DNA of 64,000 nt from a virus (lineage: Duplodnaviria > Heunggongvirae > Uroviricota > Caudoviricetes): IMG/VR virus record IMGVR_UViG_2713896798_000008; one strand, 5' to 3'. Each line of letters begins with the position of its first letter. Positions within the stretch are counted from its first letter, which is position 1. Shown one piece after another: positions 7,281 to 62,704 of this stretch. The notes beneath the pieces were generated by a model that was not told the DNA's origin, ran no database searches, and saw only the letters and a list, made by a program, of their open reading frames with translations. The position numbers were made by a program, and so were the translations under genes.

Positions 7281-9260
7281 TCAGGCCACCGACGAACGCA
7301 CCAGTCCACGCCAGTCTAGCGGTGCCACACCGGCATCAATGCGGATTTTTGTGGCAATGCCGTCAGTGGTGAAACCTTCCTGCTGATCAATGTATGGCGT
7401 GTCCACCCCATCCAGCCAGGCCACTTCAATGGTGTCGGTGCCCTGTGCCGCCGCCAGATACCAGGTTTTCGGATCTGCCGCATCAAGACGCGCTTCTGCA
7501 ATCACCTCAGCAAAGTTCTGGATGGGGTTAATGACACCGGCGTTTGCATCAGCCCCTTTCACACTGGCCGATTTGATGGTCTGGTTCGCCACCGTCTCCA
7601 GTGCCACAGGGACCAGCATGAAGGCCGGGCGGATATTCAGGGCACGATCGCCTTCTTTCTGCAGGCGCATCATCTGACGGGCCGCATCCAGTCCGGAAAC
7701 GGAGATCCCCCCGGTGGCAATATTTTTGTGATCGGCATGGAACAGCGCCTTACCGTCTGACAGTTTCGGGTTATCCGTCAGCACCTTGTAAACCAGGTCA
7801 CCAATCGTTGCCTTCGCCGCACGCCCCATCTTCATCGGCACGTCAACCAGCATATTCAGATCATCATTGATAATGGCCTGGCGGGTGATGGAGAAAATCT
7901 CCCCGTAGGTGGCCAGTGCAATGGTCTCCTTGCGATCTGAGGTGGTGATGTATTTATACTCCGCTCCCTCACGCACCTGACGCAGCGAACCAAAACCGCC
8001 CATGCCCACGCGATATGCAGTTTTGAAGTCTGACAGGCGTCCCTTACGGGTCCACTTCTGGAAGGTTTCTTCTGATTCCTCCCAGCCCTGGATCAGCCCC
8101 TTGTTCGACACATCCAGCAGGATATTGCCAAAATCAGAGGTGCTGTGCGTCAGCGCCAGCCCGACCATCTGCATGGGGTTATAACTGGCCATCCCAATAC
8201 CGCGCTCCGTCAGTGACATGCGAGCCCATTCACGCAGGGTCATCCCGTTATAGACGTTATCCTTCTCGATATTTTCAAATCCGGCACGGGCCAGCATCGC
8301 CTGGCGGATCCCGTCTCCCACAAAATTGCCGTTTCCGGCATAAATATGGGCCGGTGTGTTTTTGTTGGTCGGCGAGGACTCCTTGCCCATTTCATTCAGA
8401 AGGCGCTCGCGGGCCATTTCCAGCGAACAGTCAGGATCGGCCACACACTGCGCCTGAAGCGCCTGATAGCGCCCGCCAAACATGGCAAACAGATCGTTAA
8501 TGCCTGACATGCGGGCTTTCTGCTCAGCCATAACGCGGGCGCGAATGGTCGCCTCATCAGACACTGCCGGTACCGGTGATGGTTCTGTTACCGCCGGTGC
8601 AGGGATTGTCACTGTGGTATCACGCGGGGCACTGTTGCGTGGCGGAGTAATCATGTTTCGGATGGATTCCGGCATCTTTTTAAATTCCTCTGTACGTTTT
8701 GACTGAATACATGCCATTGCCTTAACAGCGGGTGTCACCTGGTCAGCAAATCCGTGTGCCAGACATTCAGCACCGGACATCCAGGTTTCATCCGCCAGCA
8801 TGGCGGCAATTTCATCGGTGGTTTTTCCGGTTTTCTGCGCATAGGCTGGCAACAGTACCGATTCGACTTTATCCAGCAAATCGGCATAACTGCGCATATC
8901 CTCAGCATCCCCGCCACTGAATCCCCATGGCTTATGGATCATCATGAAGGCATTTTCCGGCATAATGACCGTATCACCGGCCATCGCAATCACGGATGCC
9001 ATCGAGGCGGCAACGCCATCCACATACACGGTAATGGTCGCCCCCTGATTTTTCAGGGCATTAAAAATGGCGATGCCTTCAAAGACATCGCCACCCGGTG
9101 AATTGATATGGAGATTAATGTGGGTGATATCACCAAGTGCATTCAGTTCGCTGACAAACTGCTTCGCGGTAACGCCCCAGAAACCAATCTCATCATAAAT
9201 ATAAATATCTGCGTCACCCGGCCCCCCAGCCTGCATCCTGAACCAGGATTTATTCTTCAT
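7281..9260 (-). CDS. Prohead protease (ClpP/S49-like) fused to HK97-fold major capsid protein
   Basis: Start at ATG 9260 (MKNKSWFRMQAGG...) just after the portal stop; N-terminal serine-protease motifs (GVAASMAS, MIHKP), C-terminal capsid-like region; longer track ORF overlaps portal. Confidence 0.8.
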   Translation of the reverse strand: MKNKSWFRMQAGGPGDADIYIYDEIGFWGVTAKQFVSELNALGDITHINLHINSPGGDVFEGIAIFNALKNQGATITVYVDGVAASMASVIAMAGDTVIMPENAFMMIHKPWGFSGGDAEDMRSYADLLDKVESVLLPAYAQKTGKTTDEIAAMLADETWMSGAECLAHGFADQVTPAVKAMACIQSKRTEEFKKMPESIRNMITPPRNSAPRDTTVTIPAPAVTEPSPVPAVSDEATIRARVMAEQKARMSGINDLFAMFGGRYQALQAQCVADPDCSLEMARERLLNEMGKESSPTNKNTPAHIYAGNGNFVGDGIRQAMLARAGFENIEKDNVYNGMTLREWARMSLTERGIGMASYNPMQMVGLALTHSTSDFGNILLDVSNKGLIQGWEESEETFQKWTRKGRLSDFKTAYRVGMGGFGSLRQVREGAEYKYITTSDRKETIALATYGEIFSITRQAIINDDLNMLVDVPMKMGRAAKATIGDLVYKVLTDNPKLSDGKALFHADHKNIATGGISVSGLDAARQMMRLQKEGDRALNIRPAFMLVPVALETVANQTIKSASVKGADANAGVINPIQNFAEVIAEARLDAADPKTWYLAAAQGTDTIEVAWLDGVDTPYIDQQEGFTTDGIATKIRIDAGVAPLDWRGLVRSSVA

Positions 9261-10752
9261 GCTGGCTTTCGGTGTCGCGCTGATGCTGTCGTTCAGTTCC
9301 GGCACTGTTTCCTCCTTTATCGTTGACGGGGTCAGTATCAAAGACCAGCCCCAGTCTGCTGTTTTCATCAATTTCAGCCTTGCGGCGACGTTTGACCTCA
9401 TCCGGATTGCGCCCTCCGGCCCGAACCCAGTCGGATTCTGTCGCTGCACCACCCCGGATCTGAATTCTCCAGGCTTCAGCTTCCTTAACCGGATCGATCC
9501 ACGGCATCACCGGACCGGAATACGTCGCGTTATATAGCGTTTTCATCTCCACATCTGCCGGAATTTTCAGCAGACCTGCCGCAACCACCATATTCAGCCA
9601 TGTCCGGTACACAGGGCGGGTTACCGCGCCAATAAAACAGTCCTGCAGGATCAGATACCCGTCGGTGGACTCGACCAGCTCCTGCCGCTGGGCACTGTAG
9701 GTACCGTTATAGTTACGCGCCGCACTGGAAAAACTCAGACGACTGCCTGCAGCTACTGCACGCAGCTGACCGTTACGAAAGGTTTCAAGATTGGGGTTAG
9801 GACGGTCAGATTTGACCATGCCGATATCCTCGCCCTTGCGCAAATCGTCATAAATAATACCCGGGGTGATATGGACTTCCCGCTCGGTCTCTTTGATCCC
9901 AGGATCTTCATAGTCCTGCCCGTCCCCTTTACGGATATACAGTCCCAGCGCCGCAGCAATACGCGCTGCCGTCAGTTCCGCATCCTCATACTCCTTAAGG
10001 GCACTGATCCGCATCAGCACCCCCGATAACATGGATGAGCCTCGCGTCTGATGCAGACGACGAGTGAACTTCAGGTGGATCATTTTTCCGGCAACGATTT
10101 CTTTCGTATCACTCTGCCGGCCGCTGACCGGATAATTTTTATAAACCAGATATTTTTTCGGTCTTCCCCACTCATCAAGAAAAACCCCCTGATTCAGCCC
10201 GGCGGATTCATCACTGCGCATGGGAACAAAATCCGGCTCCATCGCTTCAAGCCAGAATGGCACTCCCGCCGTCCGTTCCAGACCATTTCCCGCCCCACTG
10301 ACCATCTGCGCAAACACTTCACCATCCCGCAGCCAGGTCCGCAGCAGTAAACGCTCAAGCACGGGACGGGTATACTGCCCTGTCACATCCGGACTGACCG
10401 ACCATTCAGCCCACAACCGGCGGATATCCGCAGCCAGCTCTGCCGCCATTTCCCCGTTTTTTCGTAATGGCTGAGGCTCCACAATAATTCCCCTGGCACC
10501 AATCACCCGCTCTTCAAGCTTGTCAAACACACCAATCACCAGGTCATGATTGATATCCAGAAAACGGGCCTGCTCCCGCAGGGAAACCGCACCGTATTTA
10601 CTGAGCTGATCAGCAGAGCGATTTTCCCGCCGGGCTTTATGTGTCCGGGTCGTTTTCACCGCCTCATAGGCCATGATTAATGCCCTTGAACGCAGTCTGG
10701 CTGCTTTCCATCCGGGGGAAAACACGCCTATCACATCATCGATAATTGCCAT
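9250..10752 (-). CDS. Portal protein
   Basis: 500-aa ORF between terminase and protease/capsid, acidic C-terminal tail. Confidence 0.85.
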   Translation of the reverse strand: MAIIDDVIGVFSPGWKAARLRSRALIMAYEAVKTTRTHKARRENRSADQLSKYGAVSLREQARFLDINHDLVIGVFDKLEERVIGARGIIVEPQPLRKNGEMAAELAADIRRLWAEWSVSPDVTGQYTRPVLERLLLRTWLRDGEVFAQMVSGAGNGLERTAGVPFWLEAMEPDFVPMRSDESAGLNQGVFLDEWGRPKKYLVYKNYPVSGRQSDTKEIVAGKMIHLKFTRRLHQTRGSSMLSGVLMRISALKEYEDAELTAARIAAALGLYIRKGDGQDYEDPGIKETEREVHITPGIIYDDLRKGEDIGMVKSDRPNPNLETFRNGQLRAVAAGSRLSFSSAARNYNGTYSAQRQELVESTDGYLILQDCFIGAVTRPVYRTWLNMVVAAGLLKIPADVEMKTLYNATYSGPVMPWIDPVKEAEAWRIQIRGGAATESDWVRAGGRNPDEVKRRRKAEIDENSRLGLVFDTDPVNDKGGNSAGTERQHQRDTESQHEE

Positions 10753-18423: not shown

Positions 18424-18953
18424 GAATCCTCCCGGCCGGGATAATGTTGTGAGTCAGATAAGGGGCGGGCTGAAGTCCGGAAGTTACAGGACAATGACAG
18501 AAGGAAGACTACAGCCCGCAATACGAAAAAGGCCGCGCAGTTGCGCAGCCTTATAAACCCTGGTTAAAATCCACACGATAAAAATGACAATGCAAGTATC
18601 TCATGCTGTTGCCCGAACCTACTCGGGCTTTTTTTGCATGTAAAAAGGCTCCTGCGATGAGGAGCCTGGATATATGCCTAATCTCTGTATACAGCATGAT
18701 GCCGGGTGCCTCCCGGTGAATTCTGCAATGACCAGACAGAATCCGCAACTTGCCTATACAATACGCAACCAAACATCTGTCATTATGCCCCGCCGCCCAG
18801 GGGGATTCATCATGCAGGATTTTTTTAACAAACGCTCAGCATGTCAGGCAACAGTCAACTACCTGAATTGTGAGGCATTTAACATTTCACTGTCCGGTGT
18901 CTTTCCTGTAATAAAAAGCCCGCAAAAGAGAGTCAGGGCAGATAAGTGTGGTG

Positions 18954-19030
18954 TGGCGCGTTGTACTGGATTCGAACCAGTGACCGATTGCTTAGAAGGC
19001 AATTGCTCTGTCCGGCTGAGCTAACAACGC
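18954..19030 (-). tRNA. tRNA-Arg (anticodon UCU)
   Basis: Reverse complement folds as cloverleaf: GCGTTGT acceptor, anticodon loop CTTCTAA, T-loop GGTTCGAATCC, 3' GCCA. Confidence 0.85.
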
Positions 19031-19110
19031 AGAATACCGATAATGGACCGCCACCGGGGACTCCGAATCTCGCACAGGGTGACGTTCTTTCCTGATGAGC
19101 TAGTGGCGGT

Positions 19111-19186
19111 TGGTGGCCCTTGCTGGATTTGAACCAGCGACCTGGCGATTATGAGTCACTCGCTCTCACCACTGAGCTAAAGGGCC
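19111..19186 (-). tRNA. tRNA with CAU anticodon (Ile2/Met type, ileZ-like)
   Basis: Reverse complement GGCCCTTTAGCTCAGTGG...CTCATAA...GGTTCAAATCC...CCACCA; resembles E. coli ileX. Confidence 0.8.
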
Positions 19187-26162: not shown

Positions 26163-26413
26163 TCCTGAACCCTCCTGTCGAAATAAACGTAGTTATTCAC
26201 TGCGCCCAACTTCATCCCAAACTTTTCGGCAATTTCCCGTCGGGGTACACCACGCTGATGCAGTTGCCGCGCCAGCTCAATATCACGCTGTGAACATTTG
26301 GCTGACTGGTGATAATCACCCCGTAACATCATGCTGATACCCAGTTCCCGCGCTTTCGTCCTGACGGCTGACTCACTACGGCCAATCAGATAACCGATGC
26401 TTTCGACTTTCAT
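26159..26413 (-). CDS. Small HTH-like protein
   Basis: Start at internal Met MKVESIGYL... to avoid overlap; HTH-like RREIAEKFGMKLGAVNNYV. Confidence 0.4.
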   Translation of the reverse strand: MKVESIGYLIGRSESAVRTKARELGISMMLRGDYHQSAKCSQRDIELARQLHQRGVPRREIAEKFGMKLGAVNNYVYFDRRVQE

Positions 26414-28954: not shown

Positions 28955-29380
28955 TTAGTGCATCACCACGGCATTTCCTGCCGGGCCGCCGCGATTCATC
29001 TGGTCATACAAAACAACCGCTGACGCAACAAAATCGTCGACATCTTTCACCAGCCGATCCCGCCGTTCGACGATCTCACGGTAATACTCAGAACTGTGGC
29101 TGCGCATACGGGCCACCAGCAAAGGCGGCATCGCCTTTTCGATCGCTGGTAACAGAGCCTGAATTTTTTCAACAGCATCAGGGGTGTCTTTATCCAGCCA
29201 ACGGAAAATTTTCTGGGTATTACGGGCCAGGGCTTCCGGATGACTGTCGTCGTACAGTTCCGGGAACGTCATCCCCAGCTCGAAATACGCTTTGGTAATT
29301 TTCGCAGCCGGTACTTTTTCGCCGTCCGGATGCGCCCAGGCATTCATCGCCATGCGGATGTGTTCATGCTTGATTTTCAT
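28955..29380 (-). CDS. YdaT-like/CII-like early regulator
   Basis: 141-aa ORF MKIKHEHI..., Rac YdaT-like; position after cro-like gene. Confidence 0.6.
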   Translation of the reverse strand: MKIKHEHIRMAMNAWAHPDGEKVPAAKITKAYFELGMTFPELYDDSHPEALARNTQKIFRWLDKDTPDAVEKIQALLPAIEKAMPPLLVARMRSHSSEYYREIVERRDRLVKDVDDFVASAVVLYDQMNRGGPAGNAVVMH

Positions 29381-29604
29381 GAATCATTTTTCCTTTCGTT
29401 CGAGGTGTTATCCTTCTTTTTGTAAAGTTCTGGGTTCAACGATAATTTTCCCTTGGAGTATGCAACTGCTTCAGCAGCCCTCCCCTTGGGAACTATTTCG
29501 CCGGGACGCTTACGCCACATGTATATAGCTTCTCGGGTTACCCCATAAAAATCAGCGACTCTTTGGACAGAACCAAAAAACTGGACAAGTTCATCAACTC
29601 GCAT
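29377..29604 (-). CDS. Cro-like HTH regulator (YdaS-like)
   Basis: 75-aa ORF divergent from cI with AAGGAGG SD. Confidence 0.65.
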   Translation of the reverse strand: MRVDELVQFFGSVQRVADFYGVTREAIYMWRKRPGEIVPKGRAAEAVAYSKGKLSLNPELYKKKDNTSNERKNDS

Positions 29605-29660: not shown

Positions 29661-29703
29661 ATACAATCTAAAATAATTTATATTCAATTCGCGGGAGAAA
29701 ATA

Positions 29704-30348
29704 ATGGAAAGCCTTGGCATTAGGCTTAAGAAACTCAGAAAAGACAAAGGTCTGACCCAAGTTGAACTTGGCAAGCTTTCTGGCGTAACTGGGGTAACAA
29801 TAGGATACTGGGAGAAAGATCTAAACGAACCAGGTAGCAAAGCTCTTAGTAAATTAGCCCTAGCACTAGGCACTACTGAGTCCTATCTCCTGTATGGAGT
29901 ATCATCACCTGAATCATCCCTTGTGCAGAAAAATCCAGGTATCCAAATCCCATACCTTTCTTGGGGAGAAGCGATTTCTTTCCTAATATTAAAAGGAGAG
30001 AAAACTATGGGAAATGTCGACAGGATCACCACATTCTTTGATGTCAAGGAGGGAGATTTTGCCGTTTCAATGCCTGATGATACTATGCACAATCCATCAG
30101 GGTCCCCAAGCATTCCAGTTGGAGCCACAGTGATCATGAGGCCTAGCGAAAAATATAAAAATGGTAGCATCGTCGCAGTAATAGTCCCAGATCCACTCAC
30201 AAACGAACCATCCATGACTATAAAAAAATTAGTTATTGATGGAAAGCTCGTGTACTTAGCCCCCCTTAACCCACGCTATCAATCATCCTTACTTACACCG
30301 GAATGTAACATCGTTGCTGTAGCAAAAGGTGTTCAGTTCAGCCTCTAG
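29704..30348 (+). CDS. CI-like repressor (HTH_XRE N-domain plus S24 LexA-like peptidase C-domain)
   Basis: 214-aa ORF; HTH LTQVELGKLSGVTGVTIGYWE; C-terminal S24 fold with Ser/Lys dyad context. Confidence 0.85.
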   Translation: MESLGIRLKKLRKDKGLTQVELGKLSGVTGVTIGYWEKDLNEPGSKALSKLALALGTTESYLLYGVSSPESSLVQKNPGIQIPYLSWGEAISFLILKGEKTMGNVDRITTFFDVKEGDFAVSMPDDTMHNPSGSPSIPVGATVIMRPSEKYKNGSIVAVIVPDPLTNEPSMTIKKLVIDGKLVYLAPLNPRYQSSLLTPECNIVAVAKGVQFSL

Positions 30349-30400
30349 CTCCCGCTTTGCCCTGTAATCAGAGGTCGGCTTTGTCGGCCTTTTATCTTAA

Positions 30401-30448
30401 AAATATTTATATTCAACTTGACGGCAAAACTAAATATTCTTATATTCA
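30401..30448 (+). promoter_or_regulatory. pL-like promoter (TTGACG-17-TATATT) overlapped by two operator-like repeats AAATATT(C)TATATTCA
   Basis: -35 at 30418-30423, -10 at 30441-30446; repeat copies at 30401-30416 and 30432-30448, third copy at 29671-29687. Confidence 0.5.
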
Positions 30449-30620
30449 TTACAACCCACCCCGCTTCACAGAATGCAGGGCAATACTTCGAGTTACCCGG
30501 CAGTGGTCAGGGGTTAAGTAGCCAGCCCGAGGCGTATGAACATGACGGCGGGAACACTTTGTATAACAGCGCAGCAGGTTTTTAGTTCCGCGACCCGGCG
30601 TTAAGGGGAAATGAGGTCAA

Positions 30621-30773
30621 CATGGATACCATCGATCTTGGCAACAACGAATCTCTGGTGTGCGGCGTCTTCCCCAATCAGGACGGCACGTTTACCGCGA
30701 TGACGTATACCAAAAGTAAAACGTTTAAAACCGAAGCTGGCGCGCATCGCTGGTTAGCCAGAAACGCCAACTG
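30621..30773 (+). CDS. YdfA-like small protein
   Basis: 50-aa ORF MDTIDLGNNESLVCGVFPNQDGTF... with strong SD; first gene after pL. Confidence 0.45.
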
Positions 30774-30920
30774 ATTAGCGCCAGTAAAAACAGGTTTCCA
30801 CAGGTTAATGTACCCTGAAAAGTCATGGCATAACACGAAAGCGCACGGAGAGGTTTCTTTGCATATAAGTCTTGTCGTTAAATTTCTTCGACCGTGCGCT
30901 TCCGGTTGTGTAGCCAGTGC

Positions 30921-30980
30921 AACCTCGTGGTGTACCCATTGGCGGCATCGGTTTGTTGCTGACTGATGTCCGCCCTTTTT
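30921..30980 (+). ncRNA. dicF: DicF-like small RNA with intrinsic terminator
   Basis: GGCGGCATCGGTTT...CCGCCCTTTTT terminator and downstream TAAAGTGAATTTTGTGATG match recalled K-12 dicF locus; 5' region differs; ends approximate. Confidence 0.5.
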
Positions 30981-31163
30981 AAAGTGAATTTTGTGATGCG
31001 GTGAATGCGGCTATGCGCACGCGGAACAGTTAAAACCGTAAAGTGGTATTTTACGGGGCGCAACGGGCATCCTTCTGTATTCCGACGTTAATTGTTAACT
31101 GGTTAACGTCACCTGGAGGCACCAGGCGCCGCATCAACAAAATTCATTGTTGAGGACGCGATA

Positions 31164-31352
31164 ATGGAAACGTCACTACCAAACGTTAATACGTCTGAAG
31201 GGTGTTTTGATATTGGTATTCTGCTCAGTAACCGGGAGTTTACTGAAGATGCCATTAAGATGAGAAAATATGAGCCTTATCTTCTCAATGATAATTCCAT
31301 ACTTTCCCGAATTGCTCTTCTTGAACTTGGTATTTTCGGAGAACGTCAATGA
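31164..31352 (+). CDS. dicB: Cell division inhibitor DicB-like
   Basis: 62-aa ORF METSLPNVNTSEGCFDIGILLSN.EFTEDAIKMRK, close to K-12 DicB. Confidence 0.7.
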   Translation: METSLPNVNTSEGCFDIGILLSNREFTEDAIKMRKYEPYLLNDNSILSRIALLELGIFGERQ

Positions 31353-31537
31353 CTTCAGCATTTGCACTGATGATGACGGTTTTTCTTATAACGGGTGAAT
31401 CACAGAATGTGATTACCGGAATTTATGCCAGTAAAGAATCCTGCCTCCAGGCAAGAGACGAGCAAAAAATTTCTGGTGAATGCCTCCCGGTAAAAAAAGT
31501 ATCGCTGTACCTGAATAACGAAACACCGGCTGGATAA
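31349..31537 (+). CDS. ydfD: YdfD-like small membrane protein
   Basis: 62-aa ORF with hydrophobic N-terminus, ATGA-coupled to dicB. Confidence 0.6.
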   Translation: MTSAFALMMTVFLITGESQNVITGIYASKESCLQARDEQKISGECLPVKKVSLYLNNETPAG

Positions 31538-31629
31538 CCCTCCAGCCATATTAACACCATACCAACGGATTAAAAATGCCAGCAATGGCAGGGATTTGTT
31601 CACCCTTAAATCTGTAATGAGGTTTATCA

Positions 31630-34092
31630 ATGAGCACTGATAAAGAAGAATTTGCGCTATATTGCGAAGCAAAAAATGACAAAGTCAGAAAACGTCTGGG
31701 AATTAAAGGTGGTTTTTACTGGACTACAGCAAAAAAATTATCTGTTGCCATCTCCCGCTGCATTACCGCAATGGATGACAACGATTATGATGAAGACGAC
31801 TTTAAAAAACCCGTTCGCGTCCATTTACCCGTTGTGAATGACCTTCCACCTGAAGGCGTGTTTGATACCGAATTCTGCAACCGATACGAAAAAGGCGGGG
31901 AAGATGGCATTACAATGGTATTTATCGCGCCCTCTCCCTCCGTGCAGGAGAAACCAGCCAGTACTGACAATACCAACGTCAACGGCGAAGACATGACGGA
32001 GATTGAGGAGAATATGCTCCTGCCGGTTTCTGGTCAGGAGCTGCCCATTCGCTGGCTTGCGCAACACGGCAGCGAAAAACCAGTAACGCACGTTGCACGG
32101 GAAGAACTTCAGGCATTACATATAGCACGGGCGGAAGAACTGCCGGCTGTTACTGCCCTGGCCATTTCTCACAAAACAAAGCTGCTCGACCCGCTGGAGA
32201 TTCGCGACCTTCACAAACTGGTACGCGACACTGACAAAGTTTTCCCTAATCCCGGTAATTCAGACCTGGGACTGATAACTGCTTTTTTCGAGGCATACCT
32301 GGACGCTGACTACACTGATCGGGGTCTGCTGACAAAAGAGTGGATGAAAGGAAATCGTGTTTCGCGTATCACCCGTACGGCTTCCGGTGCAAATGCCGGT
32401 GGCGGGAACAAAACCGATCGCAATCCGAATTTAGTACACACCTTCGATACGCTGGATGTGGAGATTGCAGCAGCCACACTTCCGATGGATTTTAATATTT
32501 ATGAAATTCCGGGCAGCGTTTATCGTCGCGCAAAAGAAATCGTCCTGAAAAGAGAAAGTCCGTTCAAAGAATGGTCCGCAGCACTTCGCGCAACCCCGGG
32601 TATTCTGGACTATTCCCGCGCCGCTATTTTTGCACTTATCCGGAGCGCTCACCCTGAGTTTTATCACTACCCGGGACGCCTTCAGGGGTATATCAACGCC
32701 TACTTAACGGAGACTGATCACGAGAACCCCAGCAAGGAAACTCTCACTGCTGCACGACATACACCGGAAAAAGATATCCTGGAAGAAGTTAACCGCGAAC
32801 TGTCTGCTAAGCAGGAAACAGAAGAAGAAGAAAATGATGAAGAAAAACCGCAACCATCTTGCGCAATGGCAGATGAACAGGCAACGGCTGAAACAGTGGA
32901 ACCGGATGCAACTGAACATCATCAGGACACGCAGCCGCTGGATGCTCAGTCACAGGTAAATTCTGTTGATGCGAAATATCAGAAACTGCGGGCAGAACTC
33001 CATGAAGCCCGGAAAAACATTCCGCCCCAAAATCCTGTCGATGCAGACAAATTACTGGCTGCCTCTCGCGGAGAATTTGTTGAAGGGATTAGCGACCCGA
33101 ATGATCCGAAATGGATTAAGGGGATCCAGACCCGCGATTCTGTGTACCAGAACCAGCAAGAAACGGAACAGAACGACCAGAAAGCGGAACAAAACAGCCC
33201 AAATGCGTTACAAAACGAGCCAGAAACGAAACAGCCTGAACCAGTGGCGCAACAGGAAGTGGAAAAAGTCTGCACCGCCTGCGGTCAGACCGGCGGCGGC
33301 AACTGCCCTGATTGTGGCGCGGTGATGGGCGACGCAACATACCAGGAAATATTCGATGACAAGAACCTGGTTGAAGTTCAGGAAGACGATTCGGAGAAAA
33401 TGGAAGGCGCTGAACATCCACACAAGGAGAATGCTGGCAGCGCTCAGGACCACGCCAGCGATAGTGAAACTGGCGAGACGGCAGATCCCTTAATTACGGT
33501 GAACGGTCATCACGTTATCACATCCACCAGCAGGACGTGTGACCATCTAATGATCGACCTTGAAACCATGGGAAAAAATCCTGATGCCCCGATTATCTCA
33601 ATAGGTGCAATATTTTTCGATCCGCAAACCGGAGATATGGGACCGGAATTTAGTAAGACTATCGATCTGGAAACTGCTGGCGGAGTCATTGATCGGGACA
33701 CCATTAAATGGTGGCTTAAGCAATCACGCGAAGCGCAATCTGCCATTATGACCGATGAAATCCCGTTAGATGATGCACTGTTACAATTGCGGGAATTTAT
33801 CGACGAAAACTCCGGTGAATTTTTTGTTCAGGTCTGGGGAAATGGAGCCAACTTCGACAACACGATTTTGCGCCGTTCATACGAACGGCAGGGGATCCCC
33901 TGCCCGTGGCGTTACTACAACGATCGCGATGTGCGCACAATCGTTGAGCTGGGGAAAGCCATAGACTTCGATGCCAGAACGGCTATTCCATTCGAAGGTG
34001 AGCGCCATAATGCACTTGATGACGCCCGTTACCAGGCAAAATACGTTTCAGTTATCTGGCAAAAACTGATCCCGAGTCAGGCTGATTCTTAA
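31630..34092 (+). CDS. Exonuclease: RecE N-terminal-like region, zinc ribbon, C-terminal DEDDh (DnaQ-like) 3'-5' exonuclease domain
   Basis: 820-aa ORF; N-region resembles RecE non-catalytic part; [16 protein letters not shown] ribbon; C-terminal [21 protein letters not shown] motifs. Confidence 0.7.
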
Positions 34093-34164: not shown

Positions 34165-34416
34165 ATGAGCGAAGTAATCATGATTGTCTCTCCCGGCAAA
34201 TGGGTATCCGAAGAGCAGTTAATTGCGCTGAAAGGAATAAAAAAAGGTACGTTAAAAAAGGCCCGGGAAAAATCGTTTATGGAAGGAAGGGAATATAAGC
34301 ATGTCGCTCATGACGGTATGCCATGGGATAACAGTCCATGCTTTTACAACCTGGAAGAAATTGATCGCTGGATTGAGCGCCAGGCATCTGCAAGACCAAG
34401 ACGTCATCTTGCTTGA
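34165..34416 (+). CDS. Excisionase-like protein
   Basis: 83-aa ORF immediately upstream of integrase; identical copy at 62434-62685. Confidence 0.6.
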   Translation: MSEVIMIVSPGKWVSEEQLIALKGIKKGTLKKAREKSFMEGREYKHVAHDGMPWDNSPCFYNLEEIDRWIERQASARPRRHLA

Positions 34417-34435
34417 CTAAAAGCAACACGAACCA

Positions 34436-35731
34436 ATGAGAGAAGCTGAAATGAAATATCCGACAGGCGTGGAAAACCATGGAGGGAAATTACGTATCTG
34501 GTTTGTTTATAAAGGTGTAAGAGTCCGGGAAAATCTTGGGGTTCCTGACACAGCAAAAAACAGGCGCATTGCAGGTGAGCTACGCGCCTCTGTTTGTTAC
34601 GCAATAAAAACTGGCGCTTTCGACTATGCAAAACAGTTTCCCGCCTCACACAATCTGGAAAAATTTGGTGAGGCCCGACAAGATTTAACCATAAAAGAAC
34701 TGGCTGAAAAATTTCTGGCACTGAAAGAAACTGAAGTCGCAAAAACGTCACTCAACACGTACCGTGCCGTCATCAAAAATATTCTGAGCATAATCGGTGA
34801 AAAAAATCTTGCATCATCGATTAATAAAGAAAAATTGCTGGCGGTACGTAAAGAGTTACTGACTGGATACCAGATCCCCAAAAGTAACTATATTGTTACA
34901 CAACCCGGGAGATCGGCTGTTACCGTAAATAATTACATGACAAATCTTTACGCCGTGTTCCAGTTTGGTGTTGATAACGGTTATCTGGCAGACAATCCAT
35001 TTAAGGGGATCTCACCATTAAAGGAGTCGAGAACCATCCCGGATCCACTTTCGCGGGAGGAGTTTATCCGCCTTATTGACGCGTGCAGAAATCAGCAAGC
35101 CAAAAATTTATGGTGTGTTTCCGTTTATACTGGGATTCGCCCTGGTGAACTCTGTGCGCTTGGATGGGAAGATATAGATCTGAAAAATGGAACAATGATA
35201 ATCAGAAGAAATCTGGCAAAAGACCGTTTTACAGTACCAAAAACACAGGCGGGAACCAATCGTGTGATTCACCTTATTAAGCCCGCAATCGACGCTCTCC
35301 GGAGTCAGATGGCACTAACGAGACTGAGCAAAGAGCATATCATCGATGTTCACCTCAGAGAATTCGGCAGAACAGAGAAACAAAAATGTACCTTTGTTTT
35401 TCAACCTGAAGTGTCAGCGAAAGTAAAAAATTATGGCGACCATTTTACCGTTGACTCAATAAGGCAGATGTGGGACGCAGCGGTAAAGCGTGCCGGAATC
35501 CGCCATCGCAAATCGTATCAGTCGAGACACACTTATGCCTGCTGGTCGTTAACAGCAGGAGCTAACCCGGCATTCATTGCAAACCAGATGGGCCATGCAG
35601 ATGCGCAAATGGTGTTTCAGGTGTACGGGAAATGGATGTCAGAAAATAATAATGCGCAGGTAACGCTGTTAAATACACAGTTAAGCGAGTTTGCCCCAAC
35701 CATGCCCCATAACGAAGCGATGAAAAGTTAA
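34436..35731 (+). CDS. Tyrosine integrase (lambda family)
   Basis: 431-aa ORF with catalytic R...HxxR...Y context (RHRKSYQSRHTYACW); about 95 percent identical to copy at 62705-64000. Confidence 0.9.
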   Translation: MREAEMKYPTGVENHGGKLRIWFVYKGVRVRENLGVPDTAKNRRIAGELRASVCYAIKTGAFDYAKQFPASHNLEKFGEARQDLTIKELAEKFLALKETEVAKTSLNTYRAVIKNILSIIGEKNLASSINKEKLLAVRKELLTGYQIPKSNYIVTQPGRSAVTVNNYMTNLYAVFQFGVDNGYLADNPFKGISPLKESRTIPDPLSREEFIRLIDACRNQQAKNLWCVSVYTGIRPGELCALGWEDIDLKNGTMIIRRNLAKDRFTVPKTQAGTNRVIHLIKPAIDALRSQMALTRLSKEHIIDVHLREFGRTEKQKCTFVFQPEVSAKVKNYGDHFTVDSIRQMWDAAVKRAGIRHRKSYQSRHTYACWSLTAGANPAFIANQMGHADAQMVFQVYGKWMSENNNAQVTLLNTQLSEFAPTMPHNEAMKS

Positions 35732-36562
35732 TTTTTTATTTATCAATTAGTTAGATTGAATGACTCTTGAAATCCATAATTCACAGGTGTTTTTTCCCAT
35801 CCTGTGGTTTCCTTGGCGTTTTCTAGGTTTTTTCAGATAGTTGCATTTTTTAAAAAGCATCCTAAGTTCGATCTCAGTGTCTATCTGGGGCCCATTTCTG
35901 TCCCATATATGCCCCAAAAAAACTCCTCAACAGATAAGTAGTTTTTTCATGGAGTTACGCGTAAAATCAATAACGGCTGGAAATCATTCAATACTCGCAC
36001 TATCGAAAAATTTACCAGCCAACCGCAGCACGTTCTTGCATAAGGCGTGTCTGCGGTTTTTCAACTATTCAGATACATCACTCCCATCACATTCATTCCT
36101 CCACATCAAAGGCATATAGGCTATATCACCTTGATATTTTTCTTCTTCAGATAAAAACTGTTATCTATGTATACTTTTAAACCCAATCCGTGTAGAGTCT
36201 CTGCATAAGATAGTTTGCAGTTGCCACTTCAGCTTGCGCCATAAACCGCCTGATTTTTGCCGCCATCTGTTAGCATTCCTGTATACCTGAAACGACAATG
36301 TTTATCTACGAACTTTAAGAACACCCAGGATAAAAATTGTCAACTATATCATATATAACACATTACTAATTCGAGGCTATATGAACAGCATACTGATAAT
36401 CACTTCGCTCCTTATCATATTCAGCATTTTTAGTCATGCTCTAATAAAATTAGGGATTGGCATATCCAATAACCCAGACAAAACCGATGTATAAGTCAAC
36501 ATATCCTGAATCAGACATACAATATCGCAATGAAAATCAATAATATTTTAAGGAATATATTC

Positions 36563-36796
36563 ATGAAATCAAAAGACACCCTAAAGTGGTTCCCTGCGCA
36601 GCTTCCTGAAGTCAGAATTATCCTAGGGGATGCTGTAGTGGAAGTAGCAAAACAGGGAAGACCTATCAATACCAGAACATTGCTTGATTACATTGAAGGA
36701 AACATAAAGAAAAAATCATGGCTGGATAACAAAGAATTATTACAAACAGCGATATCAGTTCTTAAAGACAACCAAAATTTAAATGGTAAAATGTAA
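36563..36796 (+). CDS. ydfK: YdfK/YnaE-like cold-shock-induced prophage protein
   Basis: MKSKDTLKWFPAQLPEV... with AAGGA SD; leftmost gene of Qin-like module. Confidence 0.65.
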   Translation: MKSKDTLKWFPAQLPEVRIILGDAVVEVAKQGRPINTRTLLDYIEGNIKKKSWLDNKELLQTAISVLKDNQNLNGKM

Positions 36797-37112
36797 TATA
36801 ATAAACTTACTTTTTTATCATTTTTCCACTTTAACAACATTTTGCTCCACTTTTCCACGACCAAACAACTTGAAATCTGGTTAAAATAACACGCAACACT
36901 ATTCTTCTTCCTTGAGTCCGCCCGGAACTCGAAAAACAAACCGAGTTAAAGCCATTTTTCACAAAATCGATTTTGGGTCTCACCAAAGTTACGGGGTTGC
37001 ATACGCATTCGTTTATTTTCGAACGTGTACATACAAATATGCACAAAAATAATCAAAATTATTTTCTGAGATGCATTATGATATGAACACCAATTTCGTA
37101 TAGAGTCTCACT

Positions 37113-37703
37113 ATGTCTCGAATTTTTGCTTACTGTCGGATATCAACGCTGGATCAGACCACCGAAAATCAACGCCGGGAAATCGAAAGTGCAGGTTTTA
37201 AAATCAAACCTCAGCAAATAATCGAAGAACACATTAGCGGCTCAGCAGCAACCAGTGAGCGTCCTGGTTTTAACCGGTTGCTTGCTCGCCTGAAATGTGG
37301 TGATCAATTGATTGTGACAAAACTGGATCGCCTTGGTTGTAATGCAATGGATATCAGGAAAACAGTGGAACAACTGACCGAAACAGGTATCAGAGTGCAT
37401 TGCTTAGCATTGGGGGGCATTGACCTGACCAGTCCAACAGGAAAAATGATGATGCACGTAATTTCAGCAGTCGCTGAATTTGAACGAGACCTTTTACTTG
37501 AACGCACTCATTCCGGGATAGTAAGAGCCCGCGGCGCAGGGAAACGTTTTGGTCGACCACCTGTGTTAAATGAAGAACAGAAACAGGTGGTATTCGAACG
37601 AATTAAGTCAGGTGTAAGTATAAGTGCCATTGCCCGGGAATTCAAAACCTCGCGGCAAACCATTTTAAGAGCCAAAGCAAAACTTCAGACACCTGACATA
37701 TAA
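37113..37703 (+). CDS. pin: Serine recombinase, Pin/Gin/Hin DNA invertase family
   Basis: [20 protein letters not shown]... catalytic Ser in RIS, C-terminal HTH. Confidence 0.9.
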
Positions 37704-37800: not shown

Positions 37801-38376
37801 CTACGGCAGTGCTGGCCATTCAATATCCGGTGCAGTTGATGTATCAACACGGTTCAGCAACACCCGATACTTTTTCCAGGCTTCCAGCAACAAGGTTTCT
37901 TCCTCCGTTGCGATCTCCAGATCCACAGCATCCTGAAGCGGCGCTATATGCTCACTGGCTATCTGCATCAGGCTGTTTTTTGTTTCTTCCGCCTCCCGGA
38001 TCCGGAACAGTTTTTCTGCTTCCGTATCCTTCACCCAGGCTGTGCCGTTCCACTTCTGATATTCCCCTCCCGGCGATAACCAGGTAACATTTTCCGGTAA
38101 CGGACCGAGTTCAGAAATAAATAACGCGTCGCCGGAAGCCACGTCATAAACCGTTTTACCCCGATGATCTTCAACGAGATGCCACGATGCCTCATCACTG
38201 TTGAAAACAGCCACGAAGCCTGCCGGAATATCTGGCGGTGCAATATCGGTACTGTTTGCTGGCAGACCTGTATGAGGCGGAATATATGCGTCACCTTCAC
38301 CAATAAATTCATTAGTTCCGGCCAGCAGATTATAAATTTTTATGGTCCGTGGTTGTTCACTCATTCTGAATGCCAT
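37801..38376 (-). CDS. Tail fiber assembly protein (Tfa)
   Basis: 191-aa ORF, Tfa-like; adjacent to pin and tail fiber C-terminal fragment. Confidence 0.8.
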
Positions 38377-57341: not shown

Positions 57342-57781
57342 GAAAAATCCCCCAGAGAATTGTCTGGGGACATTTTAGAATGGTTCAAAGGGGACATTAC
57401 AGCTTGGTGTTAACAATAGCCTGCTTCTCCGTGCCTTTCGGCACGTAAGAGGCTAACCTACATGTGTCTAGCATGAAATTGGCCTCAGATTAATGTTAAG
57501 CGTCTTGCAGGACGCGTAATGTTAACTGGGGCTTTTCTCTATCTGCCGTTGGTGTCCATGCCCGAGGCAGATAGCCTCAAGCACCCGCAGTCATTCTACT
57601 TAACTAAGATTTCCCCGCAAACCGTTTTTGTCCAGCACAGTAAATATCCAACTAAACCAATGGAGTTCGCTGTATTTACCGCCAGTATTCAATGCACATG
57701 ACCGCCATGAACACCCCTAAAAAAAGGGCATTTATATATCCAAATATTAATATCAAAACATCAACTTTTTCCATATACCTT

Positions 57782-60141: not shown

Positions 60142-60404
60142 TGCGCCACGTCCTGAAAATTACCCTGATAGAAAGCCAGTATGCGCTGCATAACTTCGCT
60201 CTTCCGGCACTCGCGACAGATTATGTTTAGGCGACTGTCGTAGCGACGTATTTCTCCGTCAGGTGATGACCAGATAAGGTCCGGATCAACCACAGCAGGT
60301 TTCTTCACCTTTGCCCTCGAGAGTTTTTTGCGGGCGTTTTGCCAGTCCTTACGCGCCTGTTCAGAGGGGAATAACCCGTATCCGGAGCTTAAGTTGCACG
60401 CCAT
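60138..60404 (-). CDS. Hypothetical protein translationally coupled to MTase-like gene
   Basis: 88-aa ORF with ATGA overlap to downstream gene. Confidence 0.4.
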   Translation of the reverse strand: MACNLSSGYGLFPSEQARKDWQNARKKLSRAKVKKPAVVDPDLIWSSPDGEIRRYDSRLNIICRECRKSEVMQRILAFYQGNFQDVAQ

Positions 60405-60462
60405 TGGGTGGGTTAAGCATAAATGTATTCCTGGTGCTAAATGGCCCGAAATTCAGGCAGAG

Positions 60463-62361
60463 ATGCGCATCTGGAAAAAACGTCGCGAAGGTGAACGCAA
60501 GGAAACCGGAAAATACACGTCTGTTGTTGATCTCGCCCGCGCCAGAGCCAATCAACAGTACACTGAAAATTCAACAGGAAAAATCAGCCCGGTCATTGCT
60601 GCCATTCATCGCGAATACAAGCAGACATGGAAAACACTGGATGACGAACTGGCCTACGCTCTCTGGCCTAGTGATGTGGATGCCGGAAACATTGACGGCA
60701 GCATCCATCGCTGGGCAAAAAAAGAAGTTATCGACAACGACCGCGAAGACTGGAAGCGTATCTCGGCATCAATGCGCAAACAGCCTGATGCCCTTCGCTA
60801 CGACCGCCAAACTATTTTTGGCCTTGTCCGTGAGCGTCCGATCGACATTCACAAAGATCCCGTAGCACTGAACAAATATATCTGCGAATACCTGACGACA
60901 AAGGGCGTGTTTGAGAATGAAGAAACAGACCTGGGCACTGTTGATGTTCTCCAGTCATCAGAAACACAAACTGATGCAGTGGAAACTGAGGTATCTGATA
61001 TCCCAAAAAATGAAACCGCGCCGGAAGCTGAACCATCTGTAGAGCGTGAGGGGCCGTTCTATTTCCTCTTCGCAGATAAGGACGGAGAAAAATACGGTCG
61101 CGCAAACAAACTCTCTGGTCTGGATAAGGCACTGGCTGCTGGCGCCACTGAAATCACAAAAGAAGAATATTTTGCCCGAAAAAATGGCACATACACGGGC
61201 TTACCGCAAAATGTAGATACCGCTGAAGATTCAGAACAACCAGAGCCGATAAAAGTTACCGCTGACGAAGTAAACAAAATTATGCAGGCAGCCAATATCA
61301 GCCAGCCTGACGCCGATAAGTTGCTTGCTGCATCACGTGGTGAATTTGTTGAAGGGATTAGTGACCCGAATGATCCGAAATGGGTTAAGGGGCTCCAGAC
61401 CCGCGATTCTGTGAACCAGAACCAGCATGAATCGGAACGGAACTACCAAAAAGCGGAACAAAACAGTCCAAATGCGTTACAAAACGAGCCAGAAACGAAA
61501 CAGCCTGAACCAGTAGCGCAACAGGAAGTGGAAAAAGTCTGCACCGCCTGCGGTCAGACCGGCGGCGGCAACTGCCCTGATTGTGGCGCGGTGATGGGCG
61601 ACGCAACATACCAAGAAACATTCGATGAAGAGTATCAGGTTGAAGTTCAGGAAGATGATCCGGAGGAAATGGAAGGCGCTGAACATCCACACAAGGAGAA
61701 CACTGGCGGCAATCAGCATCACAATAGCGATAATGAAACTGGCGAGACGGCAGATCACCCAATTAAGGTGAACGGTCATCACGAAATCACATCCACCAGC
61801 AGGACGTGTGACCATCTAATGATCGACCTTGAAACCATGGGAAAAAATCCTGATGCCCCGATCATCTCAATAGGTGCAATATTTTTCGATCCGCAAACCG
61901 GAGATATGGGACCGGAATTTAGTAAGACTATCGATCTGGAAACTGCTGGCGGAGTCATTGATCGGGACACCATTAAATGGTGGCTTAAGCAATCACGCGA
62001 AGCGCAATCTGCCATTATGACCGATGAAATCCCGTTAGATGATGCACTGTTACAATTGCGAGAATTTATCGACGAAAACTCCGGTGAATTTTTTGTTCAG
62101 GTTTGGGGAAATGGAGCCAACTTCGACAACACGATTTTGCGCCGTTCATACGAACGGCAGGGGATCCCCTGCCCGTGGCGTTACTACAACGATCGCGATG
62201 TACGCACAATCGTTGAGCTGGGGAAAGCCATAGACTTCGATGCCAGAACGGCTATTCCATTCGAAGGTGAGCGCCATAATGCACTTGATGACGCCCGTTA
62301 CCAGGCAAAATACGTTTCAGTTATCTGGCAAAAACTGATCCCGAGTCAGGCTGATTCTTAA
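60463..62361 (+). CDS. Exonuclease: distinct N-terminal region plus zinc ribbon and DEDDh 3'-5' exonuclease C-domain shared with 31630-34092
   Basis: Start taken at Met after the minus-strand gene; C-terminal 340 aa nearly identical to prophage A copy. Confidence 0.65.
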   Translation: MRIWKKRREGERKETGKYTSVVDLARARANQQYTENSTGKISPVIAAIHREYKQTWKTLDDELAYALWPSDVDAGNIDGSIHRWAKKEVIDNDREDWKRISASMRKQPDALRYDRQTIFGLVRERPIDIHKDPVALNKYICEYLTTKGVFENEETDLGTVDVLQSSETQTDAVETEVSDIPKNETAPEAEPSVEREGPFYFLFADKDGEKYGRANKLSGLDKALAAGATEITKEEYFARKNGTYTGLPQNVDTAEDSEQPEPIKVTADEVNKIMQAANISQPDADKLLAASRGEFVEGISDPNDPKWVKGLQTRDSVNQNQHESERNYQKAEQNSPNALQNEPETKQPEPVAQQEVEKVCTACGQTGGGNCPDCGAVMGDATYQETFDEEYQVEVQEDDPEEMEGAEHPHKENTGGNQHHNSDNETGETADHPIKVNGHHEITSTSRTCDHLMIDLETMGKNPDAPIISIGAIFFDPQTGDMGPEFSKTIDLETAGGVIDRDTIKWWLKQSREAQSAIMTDEIPLDDALLQLREFIDENSGEFFVQVWGNGANFDNTILRRSYERQGIPCPWRYYNDRDVRTIVELGKAIDFDARTAIPFEGERHNALDDARYQAKYVSVIWQKLIPSQADS

Positions 62362-62433
62362 TGTTCAACTGTCGCCGGTTGTGACTGGTATTCTGCAACC
62401 GGCGCTCGTCTGATGTAAGAGATAAAGAAATCG

Positions 62434-62685
62434 ATGAGCGAAGTAATCATGATTGTCTCTCCCGGCAAATGGGTATCCGAAGAGCAGTTAATTGCGCTGA
62501 AAGGAATAAAAAAAGGTACGTTAAAAAAGGCCCGGGAAAAATCGTTTATGGAAGGAAGGGAATATAAGCATGTCGCTCATGACGGTATGCCATGGGATAA
62601 CAGTCCATGCTTTTACAACCTGGAAGAAATTGATCGCTGGATTGAGCGCCAGGCATCAGCGAGACCAAGACGTCATCTTACTTGA
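62434..62685 (+). CDS. Excisionase-like protein
   Basis: 83-aa ORF, one substitution versus 34165-34416. Confidence 0.6.
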   Translation: MSEVIMIVSPGKWVSEEQLIALKGIKKGTLKKAREKSFMEGREYKHVAHDGMPWDNSPCFYNLEEIDRWIERQASARPRRHLT

Positions 62686-62704
62686 CTAAAAGCCACACTA
62701 ACTA

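Follow-up and report, generated by a model that had tools for sequence, protein, structure and literature searches.

A rare allele at the dicF position of a Qin-type division-inhibition module, and the mosaic structure of the dicF cassette in lambdoid prophages

The stretch of DNA studied here (64,000 nt, referred to at its full length as the window) is a Caudoviricetes record of IMG/VR [IMGVR_UViG_2713896798_000008]. At 30398–31537 it contains a Qin/dicBF-type division-inhibition module located at the start of the early-left (pL-like) operon of a lambdoid prophage. Between its ydfA-like gene and dicB this module carries an RNA element at the position occupied in Qin by dicF, the gene for the small RNA (sRNA) DicF. 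We found that a mosaic cassette occupies the dicF position, its conserved flanks surrounding interchangeable 5' modules and hairpins, and that the window holds a rare allele of this cassette, for which the pairings of K-12 DicF with xylR, pykA, manX and ftsZ are predicted to be weakened or absent. With moderate confidence, we consider this allele to encode a terminated, processed sRNA of the Hfq type whose targets are other than those of K-12 DicF.

Mosaic structure and distribution of the dicF cassette

Scanning of IMG/VR for a conserved 22-mer located just 3' of the terminator gave 120 loci (L005–L124), in which several layers of variation were revealed. The hairpin upstream of the cassette belongs to class I or class II, an insert of 115 nt is present or absent, and there are at least five discrete 5' modules and at least four hairpin types. 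The gene that follows the cassette is dicB, kilR (MIAHHF...) or a third gene (MLNVAIE..., start MLNVAIENQNGW). The 5' module, the hairpin type, the upstream class and the downstream gene reassort in many combinations: for instance, locus L015 contains the canonical 5' seed with a non-canonical hairpin, L007, L096 and L118 contain a non-canonical 5' seed with the canonical, ftsZ-pairing ACUCCG loop, and in L041 canonical DicF is located upstream of kilR. Mean identity to the window, determined for about 100 other loci, was 95% in the downstream 58-nt flank and 83% in the upstream block, while the core was alignable only at 64–79%, and the boundaries between the conserved flanks and the variable core are sharp. 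It should be mentioned that the Hfq-CRAC sRNA candidates EcOnc10-12 and EcOnc22-24 of enterohaemorrhagic Escherichia coli Sakai (Tree 2014, supplement) were considered as further non-canonical alleles and rejected, their coordinates lying in tail and terminase regions and not at dicF-like loci.

All distinct hairpins (29/29) have a U-tract and fold at -10 to -24 kcal/mol. In the alignment of 18 distinct alleles, 90.9% of the stem cells were paired, in comparison with 24–57% when the partner was slid, and three pairs contained compensatory changes. Thus, the level of pairing, the three compensatory pairs and the stability of all 29 hairpins with their U-tracts indicate that the hairpin is kept by selection.

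The main alternative to an sRNA is that the hairpin acts as a terminator or attenuator within the operon, limiting the expression of dicB and ydfD without any role in trans, so that alleles would diverge neutrally provided that they keep the stem and the U-tract. It would agree with the fact that conservation is limited to the stem, the U-tract and the flanks, loops and 5' segments varying freely, and also with the high stability and small loop of the hairpin in the window. However, canonical DicF, which occupies the same position, has been shown to act in trans as an Hfq-dependent sRNA (PMC5069750), the 5' modules form discrete classes with internal conservation and no continuum, and the border between flanks and core is abrupt. 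Furthermore, neutral drift does not predict the match of one of these classes to the seed of another sRNA, described below. We regard an attenuator without trans function as less likely than an sRNA.

This match was found in the Rac prophage of K-12, which has an RNA at the dicF position between sieB and kilR (L145, 1816–1871 on the minus strand, corresponding to 1417815–1417870 of NZ_CP152465.1). The 5' module of the Rac allele contains 17 nt (AUUGCUGUGUGUAGUC) identical to the part of RprA, a core sRNA, that bears its seed, with further matches in the flanking positions. Therefore the 5' modules are unlikely to be neutral filler, and the match suggests that they are target-recognition sequences. 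The Rac allele scores 39 bits with the Rfam DicF model, below the threshold, and is unannotated; RefSeq has no feature at either this allele or the window allele (29 bits), both of which are missed by the Rfam threshold.

The distribution of the alleles was studied in 5426 complete E. coli genomes. Canonical DicF was present in 3967 of them, and near-identical copies of the Rac/kilR-linked allele, the commonest non-canonical one, in 1429. Type C alleles, described below, were found in 17–25 genomes and the exact 103-nt core of the window allele in 11 (isolates of human, cattle, horse, milk and water origin). Strains that carry the allele include SCPM-O-B-9504, GE3, A30 and O111:H11 8D. The same core was identical in six IMG/VR contigs with two different downstream contexts. 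In a scan of one genome per species, a 19-mer of the allele gave six matches, all in unrelated metagenome-assembled genomes with no similarity in the flanks, about four matches being expected by chance. Since the core is 100% identical in the 11 genomes and six contigs, and since the carrier prophage looks intact, the window allele is, as far as can be judged from sequence, stable and not decaying.

In agreement with this, it is very improbable that the element is a decayed, non-functional dicF remnant produced by a deletion of about 115 nt and point mutations. About 115 nt upstream of dicF are indeed missing in comparison with K-12, and the Rfam score is below the threshold; but the same short architecture is common to many alleles, including the Rac allele with its 1429 genomes, the differences in the stem are compensatory, and the allele is unchanged in 17 independent records, with an intact-looking prophage as carrier.

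Structure of the window allele and its predicted pairing

The element and its surroundings consist of the following parts:

30837–30903, plus strand: conserved upstream hairpin, in which arm A GAAAGCGCACGG (30837–30848) pairs with arm B CCGUGCGCUUCC (30892–30903) in both the minimum-free-energy and the centroid fold
30907–30940, plus strand: allele-specific 5' module (UUGUGUAGCCAGUGCAACCUCGUGGUGUACCCAUU), the presumed target-recognition part
30941–30980, plus strand: GC-rich hairpin and terminator, GGCGGCAUCGGUU-UGUUGCU-GACUGAUG-U-CCGCC followed by C and U5
30981–31163, plus strand: conserved leader from the terminator to dicB, consisting of AAAGUGAAUUUUGUGAUGCGGUGAAUGCGGCU..GCGCACGCGGAACAGUUAAA, a variable spacer, CGUUAAUUGUUAACUGGUUAACGUCACCUGGAGGCACCAGGC and the dicB ribosome-binding site (RBS)

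The upstream hairpin is present 5' of nearly all alleles, has the conserved UGUCGUUAAAUUU in its loop and is followed by CCGGUUGUG. Its arms co-vary between class I (AGCGCAC/GUGCGCU) and class II (GGCGCA/UGCGCC), and, because these changes are compensatory, the local structure formed by arms A and B is supported. This hairpin may be a processing platform or signal 5' of the sRNA. A long-range stem between arm B and the downstream GCGCACGCGGAAC, which would enclose the sRNA, was rejected since the downstream copy does not co-vary with class I and class II. The putative 5' end at 30907 was deduced from an RNase E-like GG/UUG site (30906/30907) right after arm B; in K-12 DicF the 5' end coincides with a better site of the RN/WUU type.

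The hairpin at 30941–30974 is composed of 13 bp with one bulge and a 7-nt loop, has an energy of about -20 kcal/mol and is followed by T5 at 30976–30980; the terminator scan called it a terminator. Presumably, the whole segment 30941–30980 is both an intrinsic terminator and the Hfq-binding 3' end of the sRNA. The first 58 nt of the leader have 91–100% identity across alleles. The 5' module gave no match to other Rfam families, and only a GUGUA core is common to it and the Rac module. As a separate observation, a weak match to STnc100 (29.8 bits) covers 30987–31141 (+) of the leader, including the hairpin CACCUGGAGGCACCAGGC; the Rac leader has a similar match (28 bits).

At Rfam gathering thresholds no DicF was detected in the window. 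Under permissive settings a DicF match appeared at 30927–30975 with 29.0 bits (local E 6e-4), in comparison with a gathering score of 48 bits for DicF (RF00039) and 76.7 bits for the K-12 control analyzed with the same tool. By its locus, the element corresponds to DicF: it lies in a dicB-type operon between ydfA and dicB and is surrounded by the conserved flanks. It also has the Rho-independent hairpin of DicF, with the GGCGG/CCGCC base and the U-tract.

Alignment with K-12 and two phages revealed near-identity in four blocks, namely the upstream block 30812–30909, the stem base with the U-tract, about 55 nt after the U-tract (AAAGTGAATTTTGTGATGCGGTGAATGCGGCT..GCGCACGCGGAACAGTTAAA) and the last approximately 80 nt before dicB. 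K-12 dicF is preceded by a structured insert of about 115 nt, which the window lacks. The 5' segment is UUUCUGGUGACGUUU in K-12 and CCUCGUGGUGUACCCAUU in the window, and the loop with the inner 3' arm is AUCAGUUUUACUCCGUGACUGCUCUG in K-12 and AUCGGUUUGUUGCUGACUGAUGU in the window. Apart from the stem base and U-tract, the mature RNA resembles K-12 DicF only in a gapped CU-GGUG-AC / CGUGGUGUAC match. Homology to DicF thus rests mainly on the flanks, because outside the stem base and the U-tract the mature RNA barely aligns.

An earlier note on this DNA had described a DicF-like RNA with a divergent 5' region, and the position, flanks and terminator do make it a homologue of DicF. The note had also taken the 3' part and the flanking sequence to match K-12; this holds for the stem base, the U-tract and the downstream flank, while the loop and the inner 3' arm differ as much as the 5' region does. 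When the element was aligned to K-12 dicF, as had been proposed there, the flanks aligned, and the mature RNA came close to the outcome named in advance as refuting homology, no alignment beyond the terminator. Finally, the note had located ftsZ specificity in the 5' region, which the published pairings do not support: in K-12 the 5' end pairs with xylR and the RBS of ftsZ pairs with the 3' region (PMC5069750). As the 3' region has been replaced too, the change is larger than was supposed.

Several features are shared with Qin DicF (RF00039): the place in the operon after ydfA and before dicB, the upstream hairpin, the downstream leader, the GGCGG/CCGCC base and the U5 tail. Biogenesis by termination and RNase E trimming is presumably common to both. 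The two RNAs differ in the segments used for pairing. The 5' seed UGGUGACGUUU of Qin DicF (xylR) is replaced in the window allele, and its loop/3' arm UUUUACUCCGUGACUGCUCUG (ftsZ, pykA, manX) is replaced by UUUGUUGCUGACUGAUGU. Besides, the hairpin in the window is more stable than that of K-12 DicF and has a loop of 7 nt rather than about 9–11 nt.

Two other kinds of allele were also compared with that of the window. The Rac allele has the same short architecture, i.e., the upstream hairpin, CCGGUUGU, a 5' module of about 30 nt and the hairpin; its arms GGCGGCAUC.G / CUGAUGUCCGCC are nearly identical to those in the window, and its downstream leader is the same. It differs in the RprA-like 5' module, which stands in place of GCAACCUCGUGGUGUACCC, in the loop, in the downstream gene (kilR and not dicB) and in the upstream hairpin, which is of class II in Rac and of class I in the window. 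The closest core (79% identity) belongs to type C alleles (e.g., IMG/VR loci L065 and L020), whose hairpin GGCGGCAUCGGUUU(AAU)UUGCUG(G)CUGAUGUCCGCC is distinguished only by a loop 2 nt shorter and a few substitutions. Type C alleles differ in the 5' module (…GCUGUGUGAAGUACCAGUU), in the class of the upstream hairpin and in the downstream gene, which is kilR or the third gene. The window allele thus has the short architecture and, before dicB, combines a class I upstream hairpin and a type-C-like hairpin with a 5' module that is unique to it.

In K-12, Hfq-dependent DicF pairs with xylR through its 5' end and with the ftsZ RBS through its 3' region, and the DicF23 mutation weakens the repression of ftsZ and abolishes that of pykA (PMC5069750). 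To compare the window allele with K-12 DicF, we used a windowed duplex scan with accessibility terms together with site-restricted energies measured against shuffles, K-12 DicF serving as the positive control. These replaced full-length duplexes between the sRNA and a 160-nt target, which were long, unrealistic and without discrimination. The published sites were recovered in the control: xylR +9..+20 with nt 4–16, the pykA RBS (-18..0) with nt 25–43, manX +33..+52 with nt 35–54 and the ftsZ RBS with nt 25–44. For the window allele, none of these four pairings recurred in the windowed scan, and exact complementarity to the four loci was at the chance level.

The segment of K-12 DicF that pairs with xylR +9..+20 (nt ~4–16, UGGUGACGUUU) is replaced in the window allele by CGUGGUGUACCCAUU. 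At this site the best local duplex reached -10.8 kcal/mol, against -16.3 kcal/mol for K-12 DicF, and the site-restricted p-value was marginal (0.07, against 0.003). The sequence corresponding to the K-12 loop/3' arm (nt ~25–52, UUUUACUCCGUGACUGCUCUGCC), which serves the ftsZ RBS, the pykA RBS and manX +33..+52, is replaced as well. For pykA (p=0.42) and manX (p=0.61) the energies stayed in the range expected from shuffles, while K-12 DicF gave 0.000 for both. At the ftsZ site the window allele gave p=0.64 in a test of low power, K-12 DicF itself reaching only p=0.18; because this energy test is weak, the deduced loss of ftsZ control is based chiefly on the missing ACUCCG anti-RBS loop. The duplex predictions, with pairing to xylR, pykA, manX and ftsZ weakened or absent, agree with the altered target specificity suggested in the earlier note.

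Could the element nevertheless be a functional equivalent of DicF that lowers FtsZ synthesis by a different pairing with ftsZ, so that the module, like that of Qin, would retain two division inhibitors? It is located upstream of dicB, like DicF, the ftsZ test had little power, and ftsZ -21..-10 can be paired (Ehyb -11.5 kcal/mol) by the conserved CCGGUUGUG, which stands just before the allele-specific part. However, all alleles have CCGGUUGUG, and in K-12 it is found about 190 nt 5' of mature DicF. In addition, the ACUCCG anti-RBS loop is lost, the best duplex with ftsZ does not surpass those of shuffles, and no above-chance exact complementarity was detected in ftsA-ftsZ. An equivalent of this kind is improbable.

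A perfect 12-nt complement of the 5' module (GGGTACACCACG) at 26243–26254 (+) was the only notable match in the window. It was rejected as a target: it is antisense to a 'DNA-binding protein' gene on the minus strand of the same prophage, and, with about 0.2 matches of this kind expected by chance, it is probably a coincidence.

The module and its carrier prophage

The genes and control sites around the element are as follows:

29377–29604, minus strand: cro-like gene, divergent from the cI-like gene
29704–30348, plus strand: cI-like repressor gene, 214 amino acids (aa), HTH_3 and Peptidase_S24 (Pfam), labelled 'LexA family protein' in RefSeq
30398–30415 (TAAAAATATTTATATTCA) and 30431–30448 (TAAATATTCTTATATTCA), plus strand: operator-like 18-nt repeats that bracket the promoter
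30418–30446, plus strand: pL-like promoter, TTGACG (30418–30423), a 17-nt spacer and TATATT (30441–30446)
30622–30774, plus strand: ydfA-like gene, 50 aa, Pfam DUF1391 (7.8e-30), 90% identity to K-12 YdfA
31164–31352, plus strand: dicB, 62 aa, PF05358 (4.1e-35), labelled DicB in RefSeq
31349–31537, plus strand: ydfD-like gene, 62 aa, DUF1482 (2.9e-15), 45% identity to K-12 YdfD
31630–34092, plus strand: exonuclease VIII-like gene, 820 aa, 3' of the ydfD-like gene

All the elements named in the earlier note were found here at the places given. The promoter scan revealed a single sigma-70-like site in 30300–31700, the pL-like promoter, with one operator-like repeat upstream and the second overlapping its -10 hexamer. 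A related copy of the operator motif is present at 29673–29686, in the intergenic region of the divergent cro-like and cI-like genes; in total, the motif has four matches in the window with 0.43 expected. The ydfA-like gene, the terminator-ended RNA, dicB and the ydfD-like gene were likewise recovered at their proposed places by Pfam and the terminator scan.

DicB matches PF05358 over residues 1–62 with 119.7 bits (cut-off 27) and is thus a full-length family member; it shares 62% identity with K-12 DicB, its C-terminal third being divergent. The start of the ydfD-like gene overlaps the dicB stop by 4 nt. From 30774 to dicB there are about 390 nt without a credible open reading frame (ORF): a 52-aa ORF at 30808–30966 was rejected as a gene, as it has no Pfam match and spans the variable core and the hairpin. 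In comparison with the Qin order ydfA-ydfB-ydfC-dicF-dicB-ydfD, the order ydfA, RNA, dicB, ydfD is kept, and ydfB and ydfC are absent; some of these genes are also missing from other natural dicBF loci (PMC5069750).

As in dicBF-type modules, the repressor-controlled promoter adjoins a divergent cI-like/cro-like immunity pair. Unlike DicA of Qin (135 aa), the repressor here is of the S24-peptidase type (214 aa). The module was placed in a pL-equivalent operon, in accordance with the earlier claim, because it lies directly downstream of the co-oriented cI-like gene, and the arrangement of promoter, operators and repressor therefore gives the lambda order cI, oL/pL, early-left genes, exo, xis, int. 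The lambda pL operon is likewise repressor-controlled, runs from the immunity region to exo/xis/int and carries an inhibitor of host cell division. It has kil and internal terminators, whereas here the inhibitor is DicB (MinC-dependent) and an sRNA cassette is embedded in the operon; moreover, in contrast to lambda, neither an N gene nor a recognisable nut site was identified here.

The 1301 nt around the module are 100% identical to E. coli SCPM-O-B-9504 [NZ_CP144930.1], for which RefSeq gives the same genes, and in 34065–64000 the window differs from this strain at only three positions. The part 1–30365 lacks three insertion sequences (IS) of NZ_CP144930.1, i.e., IS1 in a nin-like region, IS3 near tRNA-Ile and the IS66-family element ISEc23, which splits the portal gene. 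Therefore, the window represents a different, IS-free carrier of the same prophage. The portal ORF (9250–10752, 500 aa) is unbroken in the window, as are the large terminase, protease/capsid and tail ORFs. With these structural ORFs uninterrupted and the three insertions absent, there is fair sequence support for an intact-looking carrier prophage in its visible part, as had been supposed. In the late region of this prophage, a full copy of STnc100 (175.6 bits) was observed at 18636–18844 (-), next to AgvB (18576–18635, +) and two tRNA genes (18957–19186).

The xis and int genes of the module-carrying prophage occupy 34165–35731. The integrase gene (~34436–35731) abuts a Qin-like remnant, so that two prophages stand in tandem:

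~36381–37703: ynfT, ydfK and pinQ of the Qin-like remnant, with cspI at ~42.3 kb and cspB at ~45.2 kb, and also cspF, hokD and relBE

A second exo pseudogene, xis and int form the end of the remnant at ~60370–64000. The remnant's own dicA-to-ydfD block, dicB and dicF included, is missing because it has been replaced by IS66, IS1 and ISNCY elements, and the dicF-type cassette at 30907–30980 is the single one in the window. Two further RNA matches were observed in the remnant: a match to the IS009 family (221 bits) at 37835–38033 (-), just downstream of pinQ and between pinQ and tfaQ, and a full-length match to the sok antitoxin RNA (104 bits) at 57415–57586 (-), in an IS-rich part away from the annotated hokD.

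Proposed mode of action and its significance

Formation of K-12 DicF involves termination or RNase III cleavage, together with RNase E processing (PMC5069750, PMC9438474). By analogy, we infer that the RNA of the window is made, processed and bound by Hfq, and that it has targets in trans. Loss of repressor at the 30418–30446 promoter would give a transcript running through ydfA, the cassette, dicB and ydfD and on into the exonuclease VIII-like gene, xis and int. Upon derepression, part of transcription would end at the 30941–30980 hairpin, and RNase E would trim the 5' side just after the upstream hairpin, leaving an Hfq-type sRNA of roughly 40–75 nt. Read-through transcripts would supply YdfD and DicB, a MinC-dependent division inhibitor that would also block ManYZ-dependent phage entry. 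The sRNA itself, a rare member of a dicF-locus family that is polymorphic and recombines, would most likely act on a different set of mRNAs: since both the 5' module and the loop/3' arm differ from K-12, xylR, pykA, manX and ftsZ should not be repressed via the K-12 pairings. MinC-dependent division inhibition and ManYZ-dependent phage exclusion are known for K-12 DicB (PMC6832061), from which superinfection exclusion by the DicB of the window, raised in the earlier note, may reasonably be extrapolated.

Several points weigh against an sRNA with its own targets. No target for the window allele was found in the four K-12 loci and the 64-kb window, a result that also counts in favour of an attenuator, and the stability of the hairpin and its smaller loop fit a plain terminator as well as an sRNA. 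The 5' end of the RNA is a guess, and its expression is deduced. The zero variation in 17 copies could be due merely to the recent spread of one phage. As to the loss of K-12 targets, the gapped likeness to the K-12 5' seed (CGUGGUGUAC against CUGGUGAC) makes weak xylR pairing possible, and the weakness of the ftsZ test counts on the same side.

In the literature DicF is treated as one sRNA, whose copies are counted without note of their sequence diversity; a 2016 survey selected dicF copies with >99% identity. Divergent alleles, the mosaic cassette and the RprA-like Rac allele were not described in the DicF papers and reviews searched, the coverage of which was partial, so that an earlier mention is possible. 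The element of the window would work like DicF and sits at the dicF locus, and yet, by its sequence, it escapes the tests that define DicF, falling below the Rfam threshold and having both pairing segments replaced.

It can be tentatively hypothesized, with less confidence than we have in the sRNA itself, that the dicF position holds a swappable sRNA cassette, in which the processing and terminator scaffold is constant and the seeds are exchanged, some of them copying the seeds of host core sRNAs, like the RprA-like seed of the Rac allele present in a quarter of the E. coli genomes, and that the window allele has its own host or phage regulon. If so, different prophages would plug different regulatory specificities into one division-inhibition operon. 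If the alleles are active, statements of the type 'n copies of dicF' under-count prophage sRNA regulators, and prophages carrying dicB or kilR would differ in the host mRNAs that they silence on induction. In the window, division would then be inhibited by DicB alone, the sRNA having another role, and the cassette would represent a natural case of seed swapping on a fixed sRNA scaffold.

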